DNA of 60,126 nucleotides, counting the filler, from Squatina squatina (lineage: Eukaryota): assembly GCA_031763465.1 (NCBI GenBank). It is 4 parts of 4 records of this genome, joined end to end, with 100 filler letters (N's around TTAATTAATTAA, not from the genome) between each part and the next. Parts side by side here need not be neighbours in the genome. Positions count along the whole stretch, not along the records: positions 28,665 to 45,884 come from JARFOE010000115.1; 3 more parts are not named here. One strand, given 5' to 3'. The notes below the pieces were generated by a model that saw nothing but the letters and a program-made list of their open reading frames with translations, searched no databases and was not told the origin of the DNA. Shown here piece by piece: positions 13,978-45,984 of this stretch; position 1 is the first letter of the stretch, and every line of letters begins with the position of its first letter. Both the position numbers and the translations under genes were made by a program.

Positions 13978-14077
13978 NNNNNNNNNNNNNNNNNNNNNNN
14001 NNNNNNNNNNNNNNNNNNNNNTTAATTAATTAANNNNNNNNNNNNNNNNNNNNNNNNNNNNNNNNNNNNNNNNNNNN
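13978..14077. other. Artificial scaffold linker
   Basis: N44-TTAATTAATTAA-N44, giving stops in all six frames. Confidence 0.97.
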
Positions 14078-28564: not shown

Positions 28565-28664
28565 NNNNNNNNNNNNNNNNNNNNNNNNNNNNNNNNNNNN
28601 NNNNNNNNTTAATTAATTAANNNNNNNNNNNNNNNNNNNNNNNNNNNNNNNNNNNNNNNNNNNN
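28565..28664. other. Artificial scaffold linker
   Basis: N44-TTAATTAATTAA-N44. Confidence 0.97.
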
Positions 28665-29174: not shown

Positions 29175-29379
29175 CTATTTTCGGGTATGGAGGAAAAAAA
29201 CTATCTGAAATTCTTTCCACTTTCTAAGTAATACAAAGCAATTGCTGTGGAGAGTCTGCAACTCCAACTCGTGAAACCANNNNNNNNNNNNNNNNNNNNN
29301 NNNNNNNNNNNNNNNNNNNNNNNNNNNNNNNNNNNNNNNNNNNNNNNNNNNNNNNNNNNNNNNNNNNNNNNNNNNNNNN

Positions 29380-30228
29380 CACACAGCACAGGGTGCATAT
29401 TGTCACACAGCACAGTGTGCATATTGTCACACAGCACAATATACACATTGTCACACAGCACAGTGTACACATTGTCACAGAGCACAGTGTGCACATTGGC
29501 ACACAGCACAGTGTGCATATTGTCACACAGCACAGTTTACACATTGTCACACAGCACATTTTACACATTGTCACATAGCACATTTTACACATTGTCACAT
29601 AGCACATTTTACACATTGTCACATAGCACAGTTTACACATTGTCACACAGCACAGTGTGCTCATTGTCACACAGCACAGTATACACATTGTCACACAGCA
29701 CAGTTTACACATTGTCACACAGCACAGTATACACATTGTCACACAGCACAGTGTATACAATGTCAAACATCACAGTATATACATTGTCACACAGCACAGT
29801 GTATACGTTGTCACACATCACAGTGTATGTGTTGTTGCACAGCACCTTGTCACACAGCACAGTGTACACATTGTCACAGAGCAAAGTGTGTACATTGTCA
29901 CACAGCACATTGTATATCTTGTCACACGGCACAGTATAAACATTGTCACAGAGCACACTGTACACAGTGTCACAGAGCAGAGTGTATACATTGTCACACA
30001 GCACAATGTGCACATTGACACATAGCACATTGTACACATTATCACGCAGCACAGTGTACACATTGTCAAACTGCACAGTATATACATTGTCACACAGCAC
30101 ACTGTATACCTTGTCACACAGCACAGTGTACGCGTTTTCACAAATCACAGTATACACATTGTCACAAAGCACAGTGTATACATTGTCACACAGCACAGTA
30201 TACACATTGTCACAGAACACAGTGTATA
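29380..30228. repeat. 24-bp minisatellite, about 35 copies, in a TRIP12 intron
   Basis: Unit TGTCACACAGCACAGTGTACACAT. It produces the 8-aa periodic ORFs (TLSHSTVY, VYTVLCDN). Confidence 0.95.
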
Positions 30229-31328
30229 AATTGGTATGTCTACACAATGTTCCAAATACCAAGCTCAGATTACAATTTCCTTTGCTTTTTTCAATTCCTC
30301 TCCAAAATTATACTTATTCTCTACTGAACAGGATAAGACAACCTTCTAAGCCACTGATGCTCTATATTTAGTCAGCTGGTGTGTCTTACTGGCCCTCATT
30401 TTTGCACCTCAAGAAATGGACCATCTTCATGTAACAGTTAGTTTGAATGTAGCTACCCTCCATATACCTCGTGAGTTCAATTCACCAATATCACAACTTT
30501 AAAAGTACCCCTTTAAAAAGCTTTTCTAACTTCAGCCTCAAGGGCCATATTATCTTAGCTTGTACAATCAAGTCAGCCTTTGAAGTATGCTGTAGTTTCC
30601 TAGGGAAAATGCAGATACTGGTTCTAGTTCAGAGTTTCGTGGGGTGAACCAAGTTACACTATTTTCAATATTAACTAACAGGAAAAAAAACTCTTTTCCA
30701 AATTAAATTCATTTAACTTTGATCACAAACTACAGTTGAAGCTCAGGTTTAATACAGCATTTCGTTTCAATAGGGCACATCAGTAGCACAAAATCCAGAT
30801 CAATTACCTAGGTTAAGCAAGTGCAAGAATGTAGAACAGAGGTCACAGACTCAATAGCTGAACACTCAGTTAAACTATTTACTCTGATCAAGGACCAGAC
30901 TTTAAACCTTTCCCTCGATCTAGGAAAACAGAACAGCCAGCAATAATTCTCAGCACTAGCGTATGTTTGGGAAAGGGTCAAATGTCTTAGTGCTTGAATG
31001 AATTGTTTTCCTAATATCAAGTCACAAATGCAATTTATTNNNNNNNNNNGACAGAAAATTACCCAAGGCATGGCATTGAAGAACACACACACATTTTGCT
31101 TTTCAATAAACATAGGAGTACACACTGGTAAGGATATTTCATACTTGTGACAATGCCCCAGTTTAGCTGGCTCTCACCATTTAAGGTTTTGGTTAGTTCA
31201 GCATTTCATTTGTGAATTGTTTACAAAAATGGATTCAACAGTTCCAAAATTGAACATTTTAATACAAAAGGTTTTAATTTGTTGCATTATCTAATAAAAA
31301 ATACAATCAATTAATTTCATCCACTCAC

Positions 31329-32258
31329 TGGCTAACTTTGCTTGTAGGCCTGAAGGCCCTGGTTTTGAAGTCTCCGATTTGGAAGACCCTGGGAGTGACA
31401 GTTTTGCTTTTGGCAGGCTAACTTTAGGGCTAAAACGAGCAGCCCACTCAAATTTGGAGGAACCACCAGTTTTGCTCTGCTCCTTTTCCCGACTGCTTCT
31501 GCGAGGGCTGGGGCTAGAGGCTGAGCGGGAACGACGAGCCTTATTCTGATCTTTTCCTTGTTTTAGCCTGGCTCCCTGAGGCACAGCAGCAGAAGAGGAG
31601 GATGATGTAGAGGCAGAAGAAGAAGAATCAGTGACAGTGCTACACCCAGCTTTGGCTGAGGTCGCTGATTTTGAAGCCAGCTTGGTTGGTTTAGCAGGCC
31701 TNNNNNNNNNNNNNNNNNNNNNNNNNNNNNNNNNNNNNNNNNNNNNNNNNNNNNNNNNNNNNNNNNNNNNNNNNNNNNNNNNNNNNNNNNNNNNNNNNNN
31801 NGGTTGGTTTAGCAGGCCTCTCTTCAGCACTGATCGAGTCAGCCACAGAATCACTATTTACAGCAGAAGTAGTAGTTTCAATCTTTTTCCTTTTTTGAAA
31901 TGGGGAGGCGCCAGCAGGCCCAGTCTGTTTTCTGCTCTGGGTCTTACTCGTTGATGCTACCTGGGCAGTTCTTATCTGCTGATCTTGCACAGACTTCCTT
32001 TTCTTTGGGGACTTTGTTTGCACCTTGTGTTTTTGTGTTTCAGTAGGATTCTCTGAGGGTTGAAGTGCTTTGGGCCTTTTTGCAGAGCAGGTGGAGTTTG
32101 AACTGCTGTAATCAGGACTTGGACCACGTTTCACACCTCTCAAGCTACTTTTGGAGCTGTCCCTTTTAGGTTGTCCCGTTTTGGGTTTTTCTGACCTAAT
32201 TCTATCTTCTTGCTGCGGCACAGAAGCAACCGATGAAGAGCTACAGCTCCTTGAGTTC
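31329..32258 (-). CDS. TRIP12: TRIP12 large N-terminal disordered-region exon (internal N gap is spurious)
   Basis: RSCSSSS...[11 protein letters not shown]...[24 protein letters not shown]...[15 protein letters not shown]...[11 protein letters not shown]. ttttcag acceptor at 32260-32259, GTGAGT donor at 31328. Confidence 0.95.
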
Positions 32259-33844
32259 CTGAAAAGACAACATGGAACGATTACATGTGCCTCTATGGCA
32301 ATGGCTATACATACAACTCAGTAACTGAGCAGAAGCTTGACCACGGCTGTAGATTTTCAAATGCATTTTGCAGTGACTACTTCCAATTTCCAAATGCCAA
32401 GATCCTGACTAGCATGAAGCTGAATTTATCAACCNNNNNNNNNNNNNNNNNNNNNNNNNNNNNNNNNNNNNNNNNNNNNNNNNNNNNNNNNNNNNNNNNN
32501 NNNNNNNNNNNNNNNNNNNNNNNNNNNNNNNNNNNNNNNNNNNNNNNNNNNNNNNNNNNNNNNNNNNNNNNNNNNNNNNNNNNNNNNNNNNNNNNNNNNN
32601 NNNNNNNNNNNNNNNNNNNNNNNNNNNNNNNNNNNNNNNNNNNNNNNNNNNNNNNNNNNNNNNNNNNNNNNNNNNNNNNNNNNNNNNNNNNNNNNNNNNN
32701 NNNNNNNNNNNNNNNNNNNNNNNNNNNNNNNNNNNNNNNNNNNNNNNNNNNNNNNNNNNNNNNNNNNNNNNNNNNNNNNNNNNNNNNNNNNNNNNNNNNN
32801 NNNNNNNNNNNNNNNNNNNNNNNNNNNNNNNNNNNNNNNNNNNNNNNNNNNNNNNNNNNNNNNNNNNNNNNNNNNNNNNNNNNNNNNNNNNNNNNNNNNN
32901 NNNNNNNNNNNNNNNNNNNNNNNNNNNNNNNNNNNNNNNNNNNNNNNNNNNNNNNNNNNNNNNNNNNNNNNNNNNNNNNNNNNNNNNNNNNNNNNNNNNN
33001 NNNNNNNNNNNNNNNNNNNNNNNNNNNNNNNNNNNNNNNNNNNNNNNNNNNNNNNNNNNNNNNNNNNNNNNNNNNNNNNNNNNNNNNNNNNNNNNNNNNN
33101 NNNNNNNNNNNNNNNNNNNNNNNNNNNNNNNNNNNNNNNNNNNNNNNNNNNNNNNNNGCTCAGACAGCCCCTTATTTCTTGCCAAGAAATTGCAGGCTAT
33201 GATGGATATGTAGCCACACTTGCTAAATCTAATTGTTAAATAGCATCACAGCTGTTAACGCTTCAGTGGCTGCTGGTTGTGGTAAAGGGGTACAAAGTTA
33301 TACTCAAATCCCCTACGTACAAATAGCTTCCTCTCATTTAGAAGTGTTTTGCTCCTACTCCTCCCTTCCGGGGCAGACTTCTTCCCCAATTTACCCCTCA
33401 TCACTTCAACTGCTTAAATGTTCATGGATCCAATTCTGCTACATCGTAGGGGCAAGAACTAGTGATCTCTCAGCTAAAACATGGAACGGGGTTCAATTTC
33501 CAAGTTAAGCAGCAGCAGGAGAAAGGAATTAGGAGCATAAATTAGAATTAACTTGGGAAGTTTGGGATTTACAGATTACATGAAAAAAAAGTGCAGTCAC
33601 AATTCTCCAGCAGCCTGAAACAGAAAAAAGGAATCCAGAAAAAGTAATGTATCCTGCAGCAATTCCAATAGGGCATTATGGAGGCCACATCATTTTCACT
33701 TGAGTATAAAATCCTGCAAAGGCCACTTGCTCAATAAATTTGCTTTTGGAAGATTGGTATGTCTTAAAGTATGTAGTTTAACTAATTTCTATCAAATATA
33801 AAGAGTCATGAAAATTTATGCTGTTAAGCAAAATATTTTAATAC

Positions 33845-37114: not shown

Positions 37115-37210
37115 ATGGCGTCTTTGTTACAGGGCACAATTTTTGAAATCAGCGCTCAAGCTCCAGCCCCAAGTAAGGATTATCATCACCTGCTTGTTAC
37201 AGATTCAAAG
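37115..37210 (+). CDS. FBXO36: F-box only protein 36, first coding exon
   Basis: MASLLQGTIFEISAQAPAPSKDYHHLLVTDSK, compared with human MASWLPETLFETVGQGPPPSKDYYQLLVTRSQ. AAG|GTGAGT donor. Head-to-head with TRIP12. Confidence 0.9.
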
Positions 37211-37573
37211 GTGAGTATGTCAGTCGAGAAATTCGCTCGACTATCTTGTCGCGTTGACCTGGCGCAATACATCAAGTTNNNNNNNNNNNNNNNNNNNNNN
37301 NNNNNNNNNNNNNNNNNNNNNNNNNNNNNNNNNNNNNNNNNNNNNNNNNNNNNNNNNNNNNNNNNNNNNNNNNNNNNNCTAGGTCTTTATATCGAGTTTC
37401 CAGGCCTCAGCCACAAGCACGGATATAGCGTTCATCATAGAGGCTTTACACACTCCCCACCCCAGATATTGAAACCTTTAATAAAATCATATTTTTTTAA
37501 AGAATAAAGGTTAAAGATAATGATTATTGTAATGAAAATTTCTAACTACCTGTTTCTTTGTTTTGAACTTTAG

Positions 37574-37746
37574 TTCACATTGCTGTAATTTTTGGCAATG
37601 AAACCCTCGAGTACATTTGTAAACTGTGTCAACATCAGTTTGATTATCTCGAACGCCTTCCTAAAGGCCTGCTCATGTATATAATTTCATTTTTGGAGCT
37701 TGAGGACATTGCCAGACTTTCCCAAACATCCAGACAATTTGAAAAG
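37574..37746 (+). CDS. FBXO36: FBXO36 F-box exon (173 nt); the preceding exon is missing in the gap
   Basis: HIAVIFGNETLEYICKLCQHQFDYLERLPKGLLMYIISFLELEDIARLSQTSRQFEK. tttag acceptor, AAG|GTAAAA donor. Confidence 0.92.
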
Positions 37747-38089
37747 GTAAAACATTTGTTATTAATTTTGTTAATATTTTAGAAGCCTGAAAAGTTAGAA
37801 TAATTTAGTTTGAAATATTATCATACTGTGTTTATAATGGCCAACGGGAGACAAATCAATGAAAGTATTCACTCGATCCTGTTTATGTCTCACTGTGGAC
37901 CTAAAAGTTAATGGCTCATTTTCTGAAATCAGAGTTCCCATTGTTATAAGAACTGACACTCCACACACAATTCAAAACTGTGAATTACCATAGTCACTGT
38001 CGGTCGAGTCGACTTGCTTCCCACCCTGCAAGTCAGGCAGCATCTGTAAAGAAAGGAAAAAAGTTGATGTTTCAGGATTTGTCCTTTCT

Positions 38090-38720
38090 TTACAGATGCT
38101 TGGAGTACTGTGCACACTTCTGCTCTCCATGTTACAAAAAGGATATAGAGGCACTGGAGGTGCAAGAAGGTGCAAAAAAGATTTACAAGGATACCAGAAC
38201 TGAGAGGTTATAACTATCAGGAAAGACTGAACAGGCTGGGGCTCTTTTCTCCAGAGAAGGAATGGCTAAGGGTTGATTTTTTTTTTAATCGTTCCGGCAT
38301 GTGGGTGTCTCGGGCAAGGCCAGCATTTATTGCCCATCCCTAACTGTCCTTGAGAAGGTGGAGATTTCCTTCCCTAAAGGACATTAGTGAACCAGATGGG
38401 TTTTTACGACAACCCGGTAGTTTCATAGTCACCATTACTGATAGGCGCCAATAAATCCAGTAAGGAATTCAGGAGAAACTTCTTTACCCAGAGAGTAGTT
38501 AGAATGTGGAACTCACTACCACAAGGAGTAGTTGAGGCAACTAGTATAGATACATCTAAGAGAAATCTAGACAAACACACGAGGGAGAAAGGAATAGAAG
38601 GATATGTAAATGGGGTTAGATGATGAAGGGTGAGATGAGGCTCGTGTGGAGCATAAACTCCAGCATGGGCCTGTTGGGCCAAATGGCCTGTTTCTGTGCC
38701 ATAAATACTATGTAATACAT
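38090..38720 (+). mobile_element. CR1 LINE 3' end with a nested antisense fragment of another LINE
   Basis: CLEYCAHFCSPCYKKDIEALE and FFTQRVVRMWNSLP plus 3' UTR, interrupted at about 38280-38445 by the gccagcatttattgcccatcc family. Confidence 0.8.
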
Positions 38721-40726
38721 TGTTGGTGGTTCCTTGATAGCCCAGCAGCTATATCCAGTGAGTCGCCAAGCCATAGAGACCAGGAATATTCCAGGGTTAA
38801 TGGTTTGTACTGAGTTACCTAATCTGAGCCATGGTGAGTGCCAGAATCAGCCTCAATAACCCTGAATTCGAGAGGGCAAGAAGGTCCGCTGTCATCTCCT
38901 CCATGACAGTCAGGGATAAGGAATAAATGCGGCCTTGCTGGCATCACTTACATTCTGAGATCAAATTAATAAAAGAATTAGAAAGGGTAAAATTGGGAGG
39001 GGTTCAGGGCCCTTTTGGTATCTAGTGACCATTGCTGAAAGTATAAATATTAGATGACGGTGTTCACCTGTGATGTTTTCAATAGTCAAATAGCCTACAG
39101 ACACTGTGAAGGCTTTTTGATGAATATTGAGAAAGCTGAACTGTAATACACCAAGGAATCAGATTATTTCAGAAGAGTGGGGAGGGGAAAAGTGGAGAAA
39201 ATTGACAAGAAAACAAAGAAAAAATGCATAGGTCTTGAATTTCCTCAAGGATCAGGTCAGCCTGCCTGCGTAATTGGGTGGGCAGGGACTAGCGGGGGTG
39301 AACAATGAGGCGGAACTCTGATGCAATAAAAGGAGTGGAGACTTGAGGAATGGAGTCACCTGCTCCAATTCCTACTAGTTCCATCCACCTGTGCCGTTGA
39401 TGGACATGGGGCCTAAAAGAGTGTTCTGGGCCGAATTCACAGCCTGAAGGACTCAGAAGAAGACATTTAGCCCTGAGGGGCTGATGCGCCATTTTTATTT
39501 TATTCTTCTGCCAGCCCTCTTGGCTTTGACCACACTGCATCTGGCCAATACCATCTTTTGCTACATACCCCTAAACCCTATCAACATTCATATATGTGCC
39601 TTCCCTCAACTAGTGGGCGACTAAGATGCACCAATACTGGTGCGGTCAGACACCCCTATTGTGCAAATGATCTGATCCTATGAACTCCAGGGTCAGACAC
39701 TTGGGATACCAGACAGGTTAGAACTCCCACTCCACTATAGTTATGGCACTAGTGGTTTGTGGTTACTTGGGCAGGTAATGTTTACGCTTCTGTGAGAGTA
39801 TGGCTCGGATTTTGTGGCCAGTGGCAAACAAACGGCATTTGCCGTTCATTGCACTTACACTTGCCCAGAAACTTTCTGTGGGATTTTACACTGTCATTTG
39901 CGGTAATTCGAGAGTCAAAACAGCGCCGTGCCCTCTACAGGGGATCTGGGACCTGTGTGAACAGGACAAGCAATGGCGTGACAAAGCCCTAACTTTTTAA
40001 TGGGTATCTAGTGGGCAAGTACCCCAACTTCACGCCATTGCATGTATGCAAAGGCCGAGTCTCTTGACGCAATACCAGTATTGTGAAGCTTGTGGAGTAA
40101 CAGGGCAACTCGGACAGCAATTCCTGATTACTGTGTTTATCTGGGCAGGTGCCGACGCTGGAAGTTGCTTTCCGATTTACTCCTTAATAGAAACATAGAA
40201 ACATAGAAAATAGGTGCAGGAGTAGGCCATTAGGCCCTTCGAGCCTGCACCGCCATTCNNNNNNNNNNNNNNNNNNNNNNNNNNNNNNNNNNNNNNNNNN
40301 NNNNNNNNNNNNNNNNNNNNNNNNNNNNNNNNNNNNNNNNNNNNNNNNNNNNNNNNNNTTTCAGGACCTGACATGTGGGATTACTTATACAATGGAAGTA
40401 TTTTATTAGAACCTGTGTAAACACAAATAAAACAATAGTTATGCACATAAATCAGTGGTAAAGCTATCATTATGAGTAATTATCAAATCTGAAGTATTTC
40501 CTCCGTGGAAATTAACACTTGGGTTACTTGCTTAAGTAAGTGTTTGAAACAGAATATTATTGAATCTTGTAAATATAGGATACATGTAAATGAGGAATGC
40601 AAGCTTCAGCACAAATTGTGACTATTTCATGCAATAAAGGTATAAAATCACTTTTCAAATCTCAGAAGTTGATCTCCCAAGTGAAATAACGAAAACAAGA
40701 GCTACCTTTTTTTTGCAGTAGATGTG

Positions 40727-42865
40727 TCAGGTTTCAGAAATTCCATGATTTTTCTTTTCAGTGTTTCCCTTTATGTGGACACAATGCTTCACCAGCAGGC
40801 AGGCTATTCCAACCATGGAGAGGAGACCACATACATAAAACGAGAAGTCGTACTTGTTTGTCAAGTCAAAGATCTAACCTAATTAAAGAGAGGGCTCATT
40901 AAGTAGCCAACAATAGATATTCTTATAATTTAGTAGTTTCAGTTACTCTTCATTGTCTTTTAGTGCCTTTAGGCCTTCCAATAAGCTACAGTGGTAATGA
41001 GCTCCGTGCAACATATATACTTGCCACAGAATTTTCCCTTACTAAAAACTAGATTTTTTTTGTTGCATCNNNNNNNNNNNNNNNNNNNNNNNNNNNNNNN
41101 NNNNNNNNNNNNNNNNNNNNNNNNNNNNNNNNNNNNNNNNNNNNNNNNNNNNNNNNNNNNNNNNNNNNNGAATTATCAAAATGCAGACGCCAAGACAAAA
41201 GTTAGACAAGTGTAATACATTCCAGACGTTGACAAATGGGAGGTCGCAGATTATACCCAAAATCACTTTTCCAAAAATATGGAATATAGCTATGATTGAG
41301 GTTAGAGGAAACCTGTCATTTTTGGAGGATAAACCATACTGTTTTACAATCTCTGGTAGATGAATAACAGGTATAACAAAACTACAATAAGCAAATAAAG
41401 CCCGGAAAATGAATGCTACAAAAAGCTTATTTTGGAACAGTGATTCACCTCCGAAGTACCAAATGTGAAATCCTAGCCTCACAGAGTTTGTGCACTGGCT
41501 AAGTGTTTTAAAGAGGCTTAGTGCATACACGTCCTTAAAGATGATGCCTTTAGTGTCTTTATATTTCTATGCAGTTTCTGATGCACTTCTCACACAATCT
41601 CTGTCTGAATTTTCTTTATACTCCTCTGCCTTGTTTTTCGTCTTCCTTCTTTCAGTATTTTGGTTGTTAATGGCAAGTGCTGTGTCATCACTTTCAGCAG
41701 CCTGCTTCCTGTTACACTCCTGCACACCACATAACTCTGGTACACTTCCTTTGTCGGATGAAAATGGTTGTAGTAGAGCGCCACAGACACACAGGTTTAA
41801 ATTTACTGCTCCACGGATCAACATTGCGGTGCAGGCTCGAAGGGCCGAATGGCCTACTCTTGCATCTATTTTCTATTTCTATATTGTACCTCTCCATCCA
41901 AACTCTGCAGAAAGGGTTTGGAGTAAAATTGTTACAAGGAACGCTCCGAACCCAGTGCCAGTTGTGCTTATTCCCTGTGCAGAGTGCTCTCCGCTTTTGA
42001 AAATACTGTCCCACCATGACTATGTTCGTTGCAAATCCCTGATCACACAATGAAGAAAAGACATTTTAATTATACAGAAAAAGCTATCTGTATTACATAG
42101 GATAGACAGCACAGAAACCCAACCAGTCCATTCTTTCAAATGGAATCTTTTGAACATAATCAACATTGGGAGCATAAATTAAACAAAATCCATTGTTTAG
42201 TCAGGATGGTGTATCCTCCAGACATCATCCCTCAGATAGCGCCAGTGGTGCTCCTTGGATGATCTAGCAGGCAATGAATACTATTGCAATGTGAGATGGG
42301 ACCATTGTTTGTAGACAGTTTATCCAGACAACTCATTTGAAACAGATAAATTCAGGATTTGAAATGTTTTAGGAAACAAAGTACAGCCAAAAGTTGTTTT
42401 ATTCTACNNNNNNNNNNNNNNNNNNNNNNNNNNNNNNNNNNNNNNNNNNNNNNNNNNNNNNNNNNNNNNNNNNNNNNNNNNNNNNNNNNNNNNNNNNNNN
42501 NNNNNNNNNNNNNNNNNNNNNNNNNNNNNNNNNNNNNNNNNNNNNNNNNNNNNNNNNNNNNNNNNNNNNNNNNNNNNNNNNNNNNNNNNNNNNNNNNNNN
42601 NNNNNNNNNNNNNNNNNNNNNNNNNNNNNNNNNNNNNNNNNNNNNNNNNNNNNNNNNNNNNNNNNNNNNNTGCCAATTATTATAAAAGACCATTTGACCA
42701 AATGCTTAAAATGCACTCACCAGTTACTACCCCAAATGAAATACAAAGATAGTAAACGCTTGTTGCATAAGCACTCAGTGCCCAGCCCAGTGTGGTTATT
42801 ATCCCTCCAACTACTGCAGTTGTACGACATCCACGTGCGTCCATAAAAAAAACTCACAAATGGGC
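40727..42865 (-). pseudogene. SLC16A14: Monocarboxylate transporter 14, disabled; exons 42721-42865, about 41170-42038 and 40727-40878
   Basis: MCT14 motifs GPF..GCRTTAVVGG, VMVGQYFQKRRAL, LNLCVCGALL, FAYCSFVIPVIHLPEIV, FPLTSIIAIFHIFGKVILG, KYDFSFYVCGLL. Syntenic with TRIP12/FBXO36. Frameshifts, in-frame TAG codons and a 60-nt insertion. Confidence 0.9.
41823..41886 (+). mobile_element. Truncated CR1-type 3' tail inserted in an SLC16A14 exon
   Basis: 56 nt (cggtgcaggctcgaagggccgaatggcctactcttgcatctattttctatttctat) between direct ATTG repeats at 41823-41826 and 41883-41886. Reverse complement of the tail at 40187-40258. Confidence 0.88.
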
Positions 42866-43843
42866 CTGTATTGCAGAAAAAGAAAAGATCTGAATTAACT
42901 GGGCAGAAAGGATAGCAAACAAGATAGACAGATATTAGGCATTGAGATGTATAGATGTATTCCATAAGGCAAAAAGAGAGAAGTAGCAAAGAATAGAGTC
43001 TCAATGATAAATAGAAAGGTTAAAACTAAATTGAAACTGAAAAGGGAGGGATATGATAAAATTCAAGCTAACACTACGAAAGATAATCAGGAGAAACATC
43101 GAAAGTGTAATAAGTAGGTGAATAGAATGATCCGATGAGCTAAAGGGATTCTGAAAAAAAAACAAGTAGATTATATAACATGAAATTGTCAGGGGGTTTG
43201 TAAGCNNNNNNNNNNNNNNNNNNNNNNNNNNNNNNNNNNNNNNNNNNNNNNNNNNNNNNNNNNNNNNNNNNNNNNNNNNNNNNNNNNNNNNNNNNNNNNN
43301 NNNNNATGGCCACTGGACAGCCACGTCTGTTCAATAAAATCAATAGAAAGGAAGCTGAATAAAGACAAACAGCTGACTGTTACCCCTTCCTGAGGTACCC
43401 GGTGCTTATTGCAGCAATTACAGGAAAGAATATTCTGTTCTTTGGAAAGCATATACCTGTTCTTTATAAACACATTGATGACCTAGAATGTAGAAGAAAT
43501 TTTCCCCAATATTTTTTGGAGGATGTGATATTAACCCACATATCCTCTTCAGTAAAGTGTGCTCAGACACCTGATCTTACAGTAATTATACATCCCTTTA
43601 GACATGTTACTATCACTTCCATCGCTTGTGTTGCTAGGTTTGATTTATTTCAGCTGAGTTGATTGTTTTCTATCTTTTTTTTGACCTTTATAGAGTTGCA
43701 GTTACAGACGGATAACATCAATGCGCAGTGAAGCCCATAAACTAACATGACAAGATGGCCTTTAAGTGTAACTACCTTTGATGGAGGAATAGCTTTAAAC
43801 AATTTATTCATTTCATTTATAAAGAAGAGTATCAAACGGAGCC

Positions 43844-44805
43844 ATGAACAGCACCAATGAGACTTCCGATTACATTTTTAACACAGTGAAGACTTCAGTT
43901 TATCTGACTGATTTTATCATCACTGCTGTGTGCAGTTATGTAATAATAAGCACAGTGCAGCAAGACTTGGAATTAAAATGTGAGACCAGATACATCCTCC
44001 TGTGCCAGCATCTCATCTATGCTTCTACATATTTTGCCGTGGGCACCCTGACAAATGGCTTTCGACTCTTCAGTATCAATTCACCCAGGATTCTTTGCTG
44101 GATCCTGTTCGCAGTGCAAGTAACATTCGCACAATGCATTAAGCTAACTTTAACCCTAATGTCCTTGAACGCTTGTCTAGCTATCTGTCGTCCTTTGCGA
44201 TACAATTCGCTTGTTGATTCAGCTAAAAAGAAGATAACTGCAATAATGTGGATATTAGCAATGCAGAATCCATTGTGGTCAATAATATATCAAAGCCTGA
44301 ATGTCTCGTTGACATATATAATTGAGAAGGACAATAGCTGTCCCAGTCCAATGAATGGAGTTGTTTCAAGACAAATTGGAATTGTATTTGTCCTTCTGTG
44401 TTTCATCTTGATNNNNNNNNNNGCTACTGTTTAATATATAGAGAAGGAAAAAGAGCTGGTCACTTTGTCTCCTTGAATGTTCAAGCAAGGAAGACGATTC
44501 TTATTCATGGTGTGCAATTAAGTTTTTTCATTGTCCCTGTTTTGATCACACTTGGACTCGGTAAAAAGCCTAAATTAGCAACGTTGTATCTGGTCAATAC
44601 TGTCATTTTCTCTGTGGCCCAGTGCCTTAGTCCTGTGGTCTATGGCCTCAGATCTAAAGAGCTTCGAAGTAAGTTAACTAAGACCAAATTCTGCTGCTGC
44701 ACTTTTAAAAATGGGAAGGAAAATGGTGGTGTTATTCAGCTGAGTGAAAGCCTTGCCGCTGGCACTGTAACTGATAACCAGAGCAGTCAAGTCTGCAACC
44801 CCTGA
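43844..44805 (+). CDS. Intronless class A GPCR, type-2 odorant-receptor-like (GPR148 / OR131-2 related); 10-N gap at 44413-44422
   Basis: N-glycosylation sequons in MNSTNET, multiple hydrophobic segments, and the motifs ETRYILL, CLAICRPLRY, ARKTILIHGVQL and LSPVVYGLRSKEL. Confidence 0.85.
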
Positions 44806-45884: not shown

Positions 45885-45984
45885 NNNNNNNNNNNNNNNN
45901 NNNNNNNNNNNNNNNNNNNNNNNNNNNNTTAATTAATTAANNNNNNNNNNNNNNNNNNNNNNNNNNNNNNNNNNNNNNNNNNNN
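45885..45984. other. Artificial scaffold linker
   Basis: N44-TTAATTAATTAA-N44. Confidence 0.97.

Follow-up and report, generated by a model that had tools for sequence, protein, structure and literature searches.

A disabled SLC16A14 (MCT14) orthologue at its syntenic position in the squalomorph shark Squatina squatina

Primate GULO and UOX are unitary pseudogenes, that is, unprocessed genes that have been disabled. Convergent loss of a solute carrier gene has been described for slc26a9 in stomachless fishes (accessible part of PMC10991444). The SLC16A14 gene of Squatina squatina resembled the members of this class in being disabled in place, with its introns kept, with several independent lesions and with intact orthologues elsewhere; unlike them, its loss has no phenotype or known substrate attached to it, and its single-copy status here is putative.

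The mammalian SLC16A14/MCT14 gene is a one-to-one orthologue and, like the gene studied here, has SLC16A9 as its closest paralogue. According to the accessible parts of PMC4929735, PMC5490967 and PMC12130231, mammalian MCT14 is intact and expressed (kidney thick ascending limb, neurons), and in oocytes it took up neither the classic MCT substrates nor phosphate; the neuronal expression and the kinship to SLC16A9 are stated in PMC4929735. In contrast, the shark copy described here was non-functional.

Closer at hand, intact MCT14 models were found, among the matches listed (120 of 130 and 91 of 91), for Heterodontus francisci (XP_067897634.1), Cetorhinus maximus (XP_078420577.1), Carcharodon carcharias (XP_041060585.1), Scyliorhinus canicula, S. 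torazame, Mustelus asterias (XP_078060180.1) and Callorhinchus milii (XP_042195228.1). The exon limits of these chondrichthyan genes fit the Squatina copy. Their open frames span 520-666 residues, whereas the Squatina copy stopped at about codon 142 and carried seven lesions.

The window, that is, the whole stretch of DNA analysed (60,126 nucleotides of assembly GCA_031763465.1), consisted of four unrelated pieces separated by linkers at 13978-14077, 28565-28664 and 45885-45984, each a 12-nt motif with stops in all frames between two stretches of 44 N, so that gene order across linkers is meaningless; it held 45 N runs. The SLC16A14 remnant lay in the third piece, past a large TRIP12 exon and two FBXO36 exons. 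Sequencing reads of relatives, about 92% alike, were compared in four runs: X1 (organism A), X2 (organism B), and X4 and X5 (both organism C). The runs matched at most 8% of the words of the window (range 4-8% over eight runs), and the kinship is judged from similarity. X2 did not cover exon 4, neither X1 nor X2 covered exon 3, and coverage holes were given no weight. Substitutions and indels of the relatives were read among the rows listed; the extra T of exon 3 and the stop at 41567 lay outside this comparison.

Identity, neighbours and exon structure

With an intact shark MCT14 protein as query, TBLASTN recovered four minus-strand segments that lay in changing frames: residues 93-136, 146-163, 154-413 and 475-524. 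The read-through of these pieces was placed in a tree of 23 rows, where it joined six shark MCT14 proteins with support of 100/99 and was sister to the galeomorphs (93/83); it fell inside vertebrate MCT14, far from MCT9 (P0294), which lay outside. Over about 355 aligned residues the read-through was 79-83% identical to the six shark proteins and 63% identical to that of the elephant shark; identity to Pongo SLC16A14 was 52%. All named matches of the MCT14 protein searches, among the matches listed, were labelled MCT14/SLC16A14 or hypothetical MFS proteins. The read-through piece scored 21.2 bits against MFS_1, for which the Pfam cut-off is 33.4, compared to 134.9 for the intact protein P0002. 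The identification as SLC16A14, proposed in a preliminary description of this DNA, was borne out by the elasmobranch MCT14 clade of the tree.

The neighbourhood agreed with this identification. Exons 1 and 3 of FBXO36 (37115..37746, plus strand; protein matches), a convergent, tail-to-tail neighbour that served as the synteny anchor, were intact and lay 3 kb off across two N gaps. They matched Pristiophorus japonicus at 30/32 and 52/57 residues and 14 other sharks and rays at 24-27 and 38-47. Taken together with the MCT14 tree, these matches mark the organism as a squalomorph shark. Exons 2 and 4 were absent from the window (37211-40726), presumably within N gaps, and the intactness of FBXO36 holds for the two visible exons only. 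An open reading frame on the minus strand at 31330..32290, which we take to be the large exon of TRIP12, was open on either side of a 100-N gap and was used as an error control. The earlier statement that the visible TRIP12 and FBXO36 exons are intact was therefore confirmed within these limits. In all six galeomorph species the MCT14 and FBXO36 records came with contigs of equal length, in keeping with conserved linkage, and the syntenic position claimed for the gene was upheld. Human 2q36.3 presumably has the same gene order.

Two other features of this piece were recorded. The 100-N run within the TRIP12 exon (31702-31801) was flanked by 18 identical letters on both sides, which marks it as an assembly gap with overlapping ends and not as a lesion. 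A long low-complexity tandem repeat at 29200-30370, with His/Thr/Val/Cys-rich open frames on both strands, is probably a minisatellite.

Three pseudo-exons were visible, all on the minus strand. Pseudo-exon 3 (42721..42865, 145 nt; TBLASTN and junctions) encodes residues ~88-136 of the Heterodontus protein and had intact AG and GT borders. Intron 3 (42039..42720) held a 263-N gap and was bridged at similar length by a relative's contig. The visible part of pseudo-exon 4 (41170..42038) corresponds to residues ~136-413; its 3' end and donor, an unseen stretch of about 61 codons plus the donor site, lay in a 100-N gap at 41070-41169. Pseudo-exon 5 (40727..40878) had an intact AG acceptor and ran through the original TGA. 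Coding exon 2 (residues 1-88) and residues 414-474 were not found in the window at a sensitive setting; both fall at 100-N gaps, at 43206-43305 and 41070-41169 respectively, and they count as unseen and not as lost. The visible splice sites were canonical; since introns and splice sites were kept, the gene is no retrocopy, as the preliminary description had concluded, and a processed pseudogene was ruled out by the kept introns together with the synteny. The window copy is an intron-containing, disabled SLC16A14 orthologue at the syntenic place, a conclusion that these results support.

A single-exon rhodopsin-type GPCR gene, with a weak 7tm_1 match and a reading frame that is open to either side of a 10-N gap, was seen at 43841-44802 (plus strand). 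Relative to SLC16A14 exon 3 it is directly upstream and on the other strand, and it may sit in intron 2 if the scaffold order is right; alternatively, SLC16A14 exon 2 has been lost or falls within a gap.

Disabling lesions in the coding exons

When spliced as in other sharks, the frame left the native sequence after Phe94, ran through 47 foreign codons and ended at the TAG at 42022-42020 (42020..42022, minus strand), the first premature stop of the spliced frame at about codon 142 of 524; an open frame for 12 transmembrane helices was therefore not found. The lesions listed in the preliminary description were all recovered. A run of eight T at 42845..42852 (minus strand), where intact shark MCT14 led us to expect seven, produced the +1 frameshift after Phe94 and lengthened exon 3 (42865-42721) to 145 nt from an expected 144. 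Taken alone, this extra T could be a homopolymer error. Skipping of exon 3 would not have rescued the frame, because a 17-nt deletion in exon 4 stopped it after 22 codons. This deletion, previously given as about 17 nt near 42023, was positioned at 42026..42027 (minus strand), where the X1 contig restored 3+6+8 = 17 letters at 42027/42026 and the X5 lengths agreed. One extra nucleotide at 41981 (41981..41984, minus strand), lacking in X1, X4 and X5, shifted the frame again.

Two further codons had changed from Trp to TAG on the minus strand, one at 41567..41569, where intact orthologues have Trp, and one at 40874..40876 (Trp476), where the four relative runs all read TGG. In addition, an in-frame 9-nt deletion at 41456..41457 (minus strand), which removed Tyr-Ser-Ser and whose nine letters are present in X1, X4 and X5, is a seventh lesion that the earlier reading had missed. 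The three frames of exon 4 contained 4, 17 and 19 stops. Although the three indels sum to -15, rescue of the frame was rejected since the stop precedes the return of the frame and the insert described below adds two more.

This insert, on the plus strand and antisense to the gene, was a 56-nt retroposon 3' tail lying between two 4-nt copies of a target-site duplication at 41823..41886, as seen from the runs and from repeats in the window. The 60-nt insertion of the preliminary description thus corresponds to 41823-41882, or 41823-41886 with both copies of the duplication, and it placed two in-frame TAG codons on the strand of the gene, as had been stated. The X1, X4 and X5 contigs skipped exactly 60 letters, and four letters fit on both sides, which is the target-site duplication. 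Depth in the bin of the insert exceeded 1 million in all four runs, and loose ends carried an 8-nt repeat tail. Four further copies were present in the window, the best with 53 of 58 positions identical. The insert therefore showed the features of a high-copy, 5'-truncated 3' tail ending in short tandem repeats, with a target-site duplication. Its 8-nt terminal repeat suggested a putative CR1-type LINE or its SINE partner (family names HER1/HE1); a literature search brought up no paper on this repeat.

If the gene were intact and the lesions were errors of a fragmented assembly, similar damage might be sought next door. In TRIP12, FBXO36 and the nearby GPCR gene, 692 codons were visible and no lesion was found, compared to six in about 388 codons of SLC16A14 (p of about 0.002). 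The assembly is indeed fragmented and one lesion falls in a homopolymer, but such errors do not typically produce deletions of 17 and 9 nt, two Trp-to-stop transitions or a retroposon tail bordered by an exact 4-nt target-site duplication. Chance or assembly error is an unlikely source of the lesions, and we consider it extremely improbable that an intact gene underlies this sequence.

The lesions might instead belong to a dead duplicate, with a working SLC16A14 elsewhere in the genome, either in tandem within a gap or transposed, in which case no gene would have been lost. The many gaps of the assembly, among them one within exon 4 and another directly upstream of exon 3, leave room for such a copy. 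However, the window copy occupies the ancestral position, each of the seven chondrichthyan species with a model had one locus (among the matches listed), and for each relative a single long contig covered each region (among the rows listed). A second, working copy was accordingly judged improbable. The loss of the gene at its own locus is preferred: several disabling lesions lacking in relatives were found in a gene that retained its introns at the ancestral locus, as in unprocessed pseudogenes, and SLC16A14 is very probably a real, old, in-place pseudogene of the ordinary kind in this shark.

A stop well before the last exon junction dooms an mRNA to nonsense-mediated decay. The first stop lay more than 800 nt ahead of the last junction, and any mRNA would therefore be expected to go to nonsense-mediated decay; any peptide would retain about two helices out of the twelve that make up an MFS carrier. 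The ancestral SLC16A14 of this squalomorph shark is very probably no longer a working protein-coding gene, and its decay would be unconstrained.

Possible relaxation of constraint and comparison with relatives

To measure the decay, we used 120 conserved columns, in each of which the shark majority agreed with a residue common to at least 95% of 112 bony-vertebrate proteins. Ten of the 120 columns had changed in the window copy, compared to 1, 1, 4, 2, 2 and 2 in six intact sharks and 6 of 120 in Callorhinchus; the changed residues included C98R, R211Q, W336R and Y495S, and one of the ten changes was common to three intact sharks. By Fisher's test, the difference from five of the sharks gave p values of 0.01-0.03, that from S. 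canicula 0.17 and that from Callorhinchus 0.44. The window branch (0.11) was no longer than the galeomorph root-to-tip distances (0.085-0.19).

Changes per replacement site amounted to 0.03-0.044 (95% limits 0.013-0.076), and the 3' flank differed from all four runs at 16 of 325 sites (0.049). In exon 5, 7 of 152 sites differed from every one of the four runs, with five replacement or nonsense changes and two silent ones, in a comparison whose shared differences are unpolarised. Because replacement-site change was close to the divergence of the flank, selection probably ended early on this branch, although the numbers are small. The lesions would then have piled up once selection ended, probably over most of the time since the split from the three relatives. 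An absolute date was rejected: the mutation rate of the epaulette shark, 7e-10 per generation (accessible part of PMC10587355), gave 43-63 million generations, too long for any likely generation time, and no date is given. At 40836 in exon 5, X1 and X2 (organisms A and B) had Phe, and the window and nine orthologues keep Tyr (where covered).

The preliminary description had regarded the loss as lineage-specific. The contigs of the relatives lacked the 60-nt insert, both deletions, the extra nucleotide at 41981 and the last stop, and the compared lesions therefore arose on this lineage; to that extent the claim stood. A single, one-off loss was nevertheless improbable in view of the models missing in rays and squalomorphs and of frameshifts that the relatives carried themselves. 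In X1 (organism A), 2 nt were deleted at 41208, near residue 401; by length arithmetic this deletion was uncompensated, and it was seen in one contig at a depth of 17.8. X5 (organism C) was short of 4 nt at 40809, near residue 497, in one contig at a depth of 18.3; since X4, which bears the same organism label, did not show this second deletion, it may be segregating.

These observations bear on whether the gene was lost once, at or near the base of the squalomorphs, by a lesion hidden in exon 2, the promoter or the unseen end of exon 4, with private lesions added later. Such a history would account for the deletions found in X1 exon 4 and X5 exon 5, and it fits the absence of an MCT14 model for Pristiophorus and Heptranchias, for both of which FBXO36 was present. 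Divergence from the relatives in exon 4 (7.4-8.0%) also equalled that of a mostly non-coding 3' piece (7.0-7.9%), but exon 4 includes a loop that is variable in intact genes too. Furthermore, none of the five compared lesions was shared (among the rows listed), and X4 showed no indel of its own across exon 5 and most of exon 4. We therefore regard a shared ancient loss as possible but rather doubtful; were it true, the gene would still be dead, with the loss shared and not specific to this lineage. Decay after selection ended on the branch leading to Squatina remains the preferred reading.

Distribution of MCT14 and possible consequences of its loss

Besides the chondrichthyan genes, intact models for bichirs, sturgeons, paddlefish, gars, bowfins, coelacanth and tetrapods were found among the matches listed. 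With FBXO36 as a control in 17 chondrichthyan species, an MCT14 model was present in 6/6 galeomorphs, 0/2 squalomorphs and 0/9 batoids; this control lacked Callorhinchus and every orectolobiform and expanded only part of the clusters, and its missing models represent an absence of annotation, which is no proof of loss. A HMMER search against 50% representatives gave six clusters above 60% identity, two chondrichthyan and four from coelacanth, bat, frog and bird, within which batoid, squalomorph or teleost proteins could hide. Among 98 MCT14-like proteins that were short or unnamed, none matched a chondrichthyan protein best.

No teleost name occurred among the 211 listed MCT14 matches. In the accessible part of PMC3319611, the MCT14 entry of Table 1 is blank for five teleosts and also for Xenopus tropicalis; as X. 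tropicalis has a model (P0020), such blanks can be wrong. The earlier description of the gene as conserved in bony vertebrates thus held for non-teleost ray-finned fishes, coelacanth and tetrapods and failed for teleosts, on the evidence of the 211 matches and these blanks. Because galeomorphs keep the gene, the absences in squalomorphs, batoids and teleosts would be separate events. We put at roughly even the chance that fishes lost SLC16A14 in at least three independent events, in squalomorphs (perhaps several times, and still in progress), in batoids and in teleosts, while galeomorphs, chimaeras, non-teleost ray-finned fishes, coelacanth and tetrapods kept it. No report of this SLC16A14/MCT14 loss was found in a literature search that extended to SLC loss in cartilaginous fishes and for which subscription journals and supplementary gene-loss tables were mostly outside scope.

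Two unnamed primate-like MCT14 proteins, P0224 and P0226, had a frame-shifted middle and were 81% and 71% identical to primate MCT14. We presume that they come from a primate SLC16A14 pseudogene copy.

Human MCT14 is an orphan transporter of kidney and neurons whose substrate class is tentative. In HEK293 cells, intracellular taurine and creatine fell on overexpression of SLC16A14, as did carnitine, propionyl- and butyrylcarnitine, and the study suggests overlap with SLC16A9 (accessible part of PMC12130231); the transporter is a putative acylcarnitine exporter. The closest paralogue, SLC16A9 (MCT9), may overlap in the efflux of carnitine, acylcarnitine and osmolytes, and redundancy with MCT9 is our preferred candidate reason for dispensability, put forward tentatively. 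A tie to the ketone-based metabolism of sharks (accessible part of PMC11320369) was set aside as weak, because galeomorphs keep the gene while teleosts, which oxidise fatty acids, seem to be without it. The supplements of a stingray kidney study (PMC9396271) held no MCT14 entry; since the table with its two transporter matches appears to cover only changed genes, this says nothing either way. The accessible parts of PMC10709897, PMC5504015 and PMC5577775 had no bearing on the loss.

Clean loss of the gene in a single shark is nothing out of the ordinary, and the interest of this locus lies in the likely pattern of repeated loss. With less confidence than the death of the gene in Squatina, the comparisons suggest that SLC16A14 may be dispensable in many fishes and may have been lost several times. 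If true, the repeated losses would show that the gene is dispensable in many vertebrates, and they would, alongside near relatives with the gene still in place, make possible comparisons of co-loss and of physiology, including the renal handling of carnitine and osmolytes and compensation by MCT9. They would also be natural knockouts with which the carnitine/osmolyte-efflux hypothesis may be tested.
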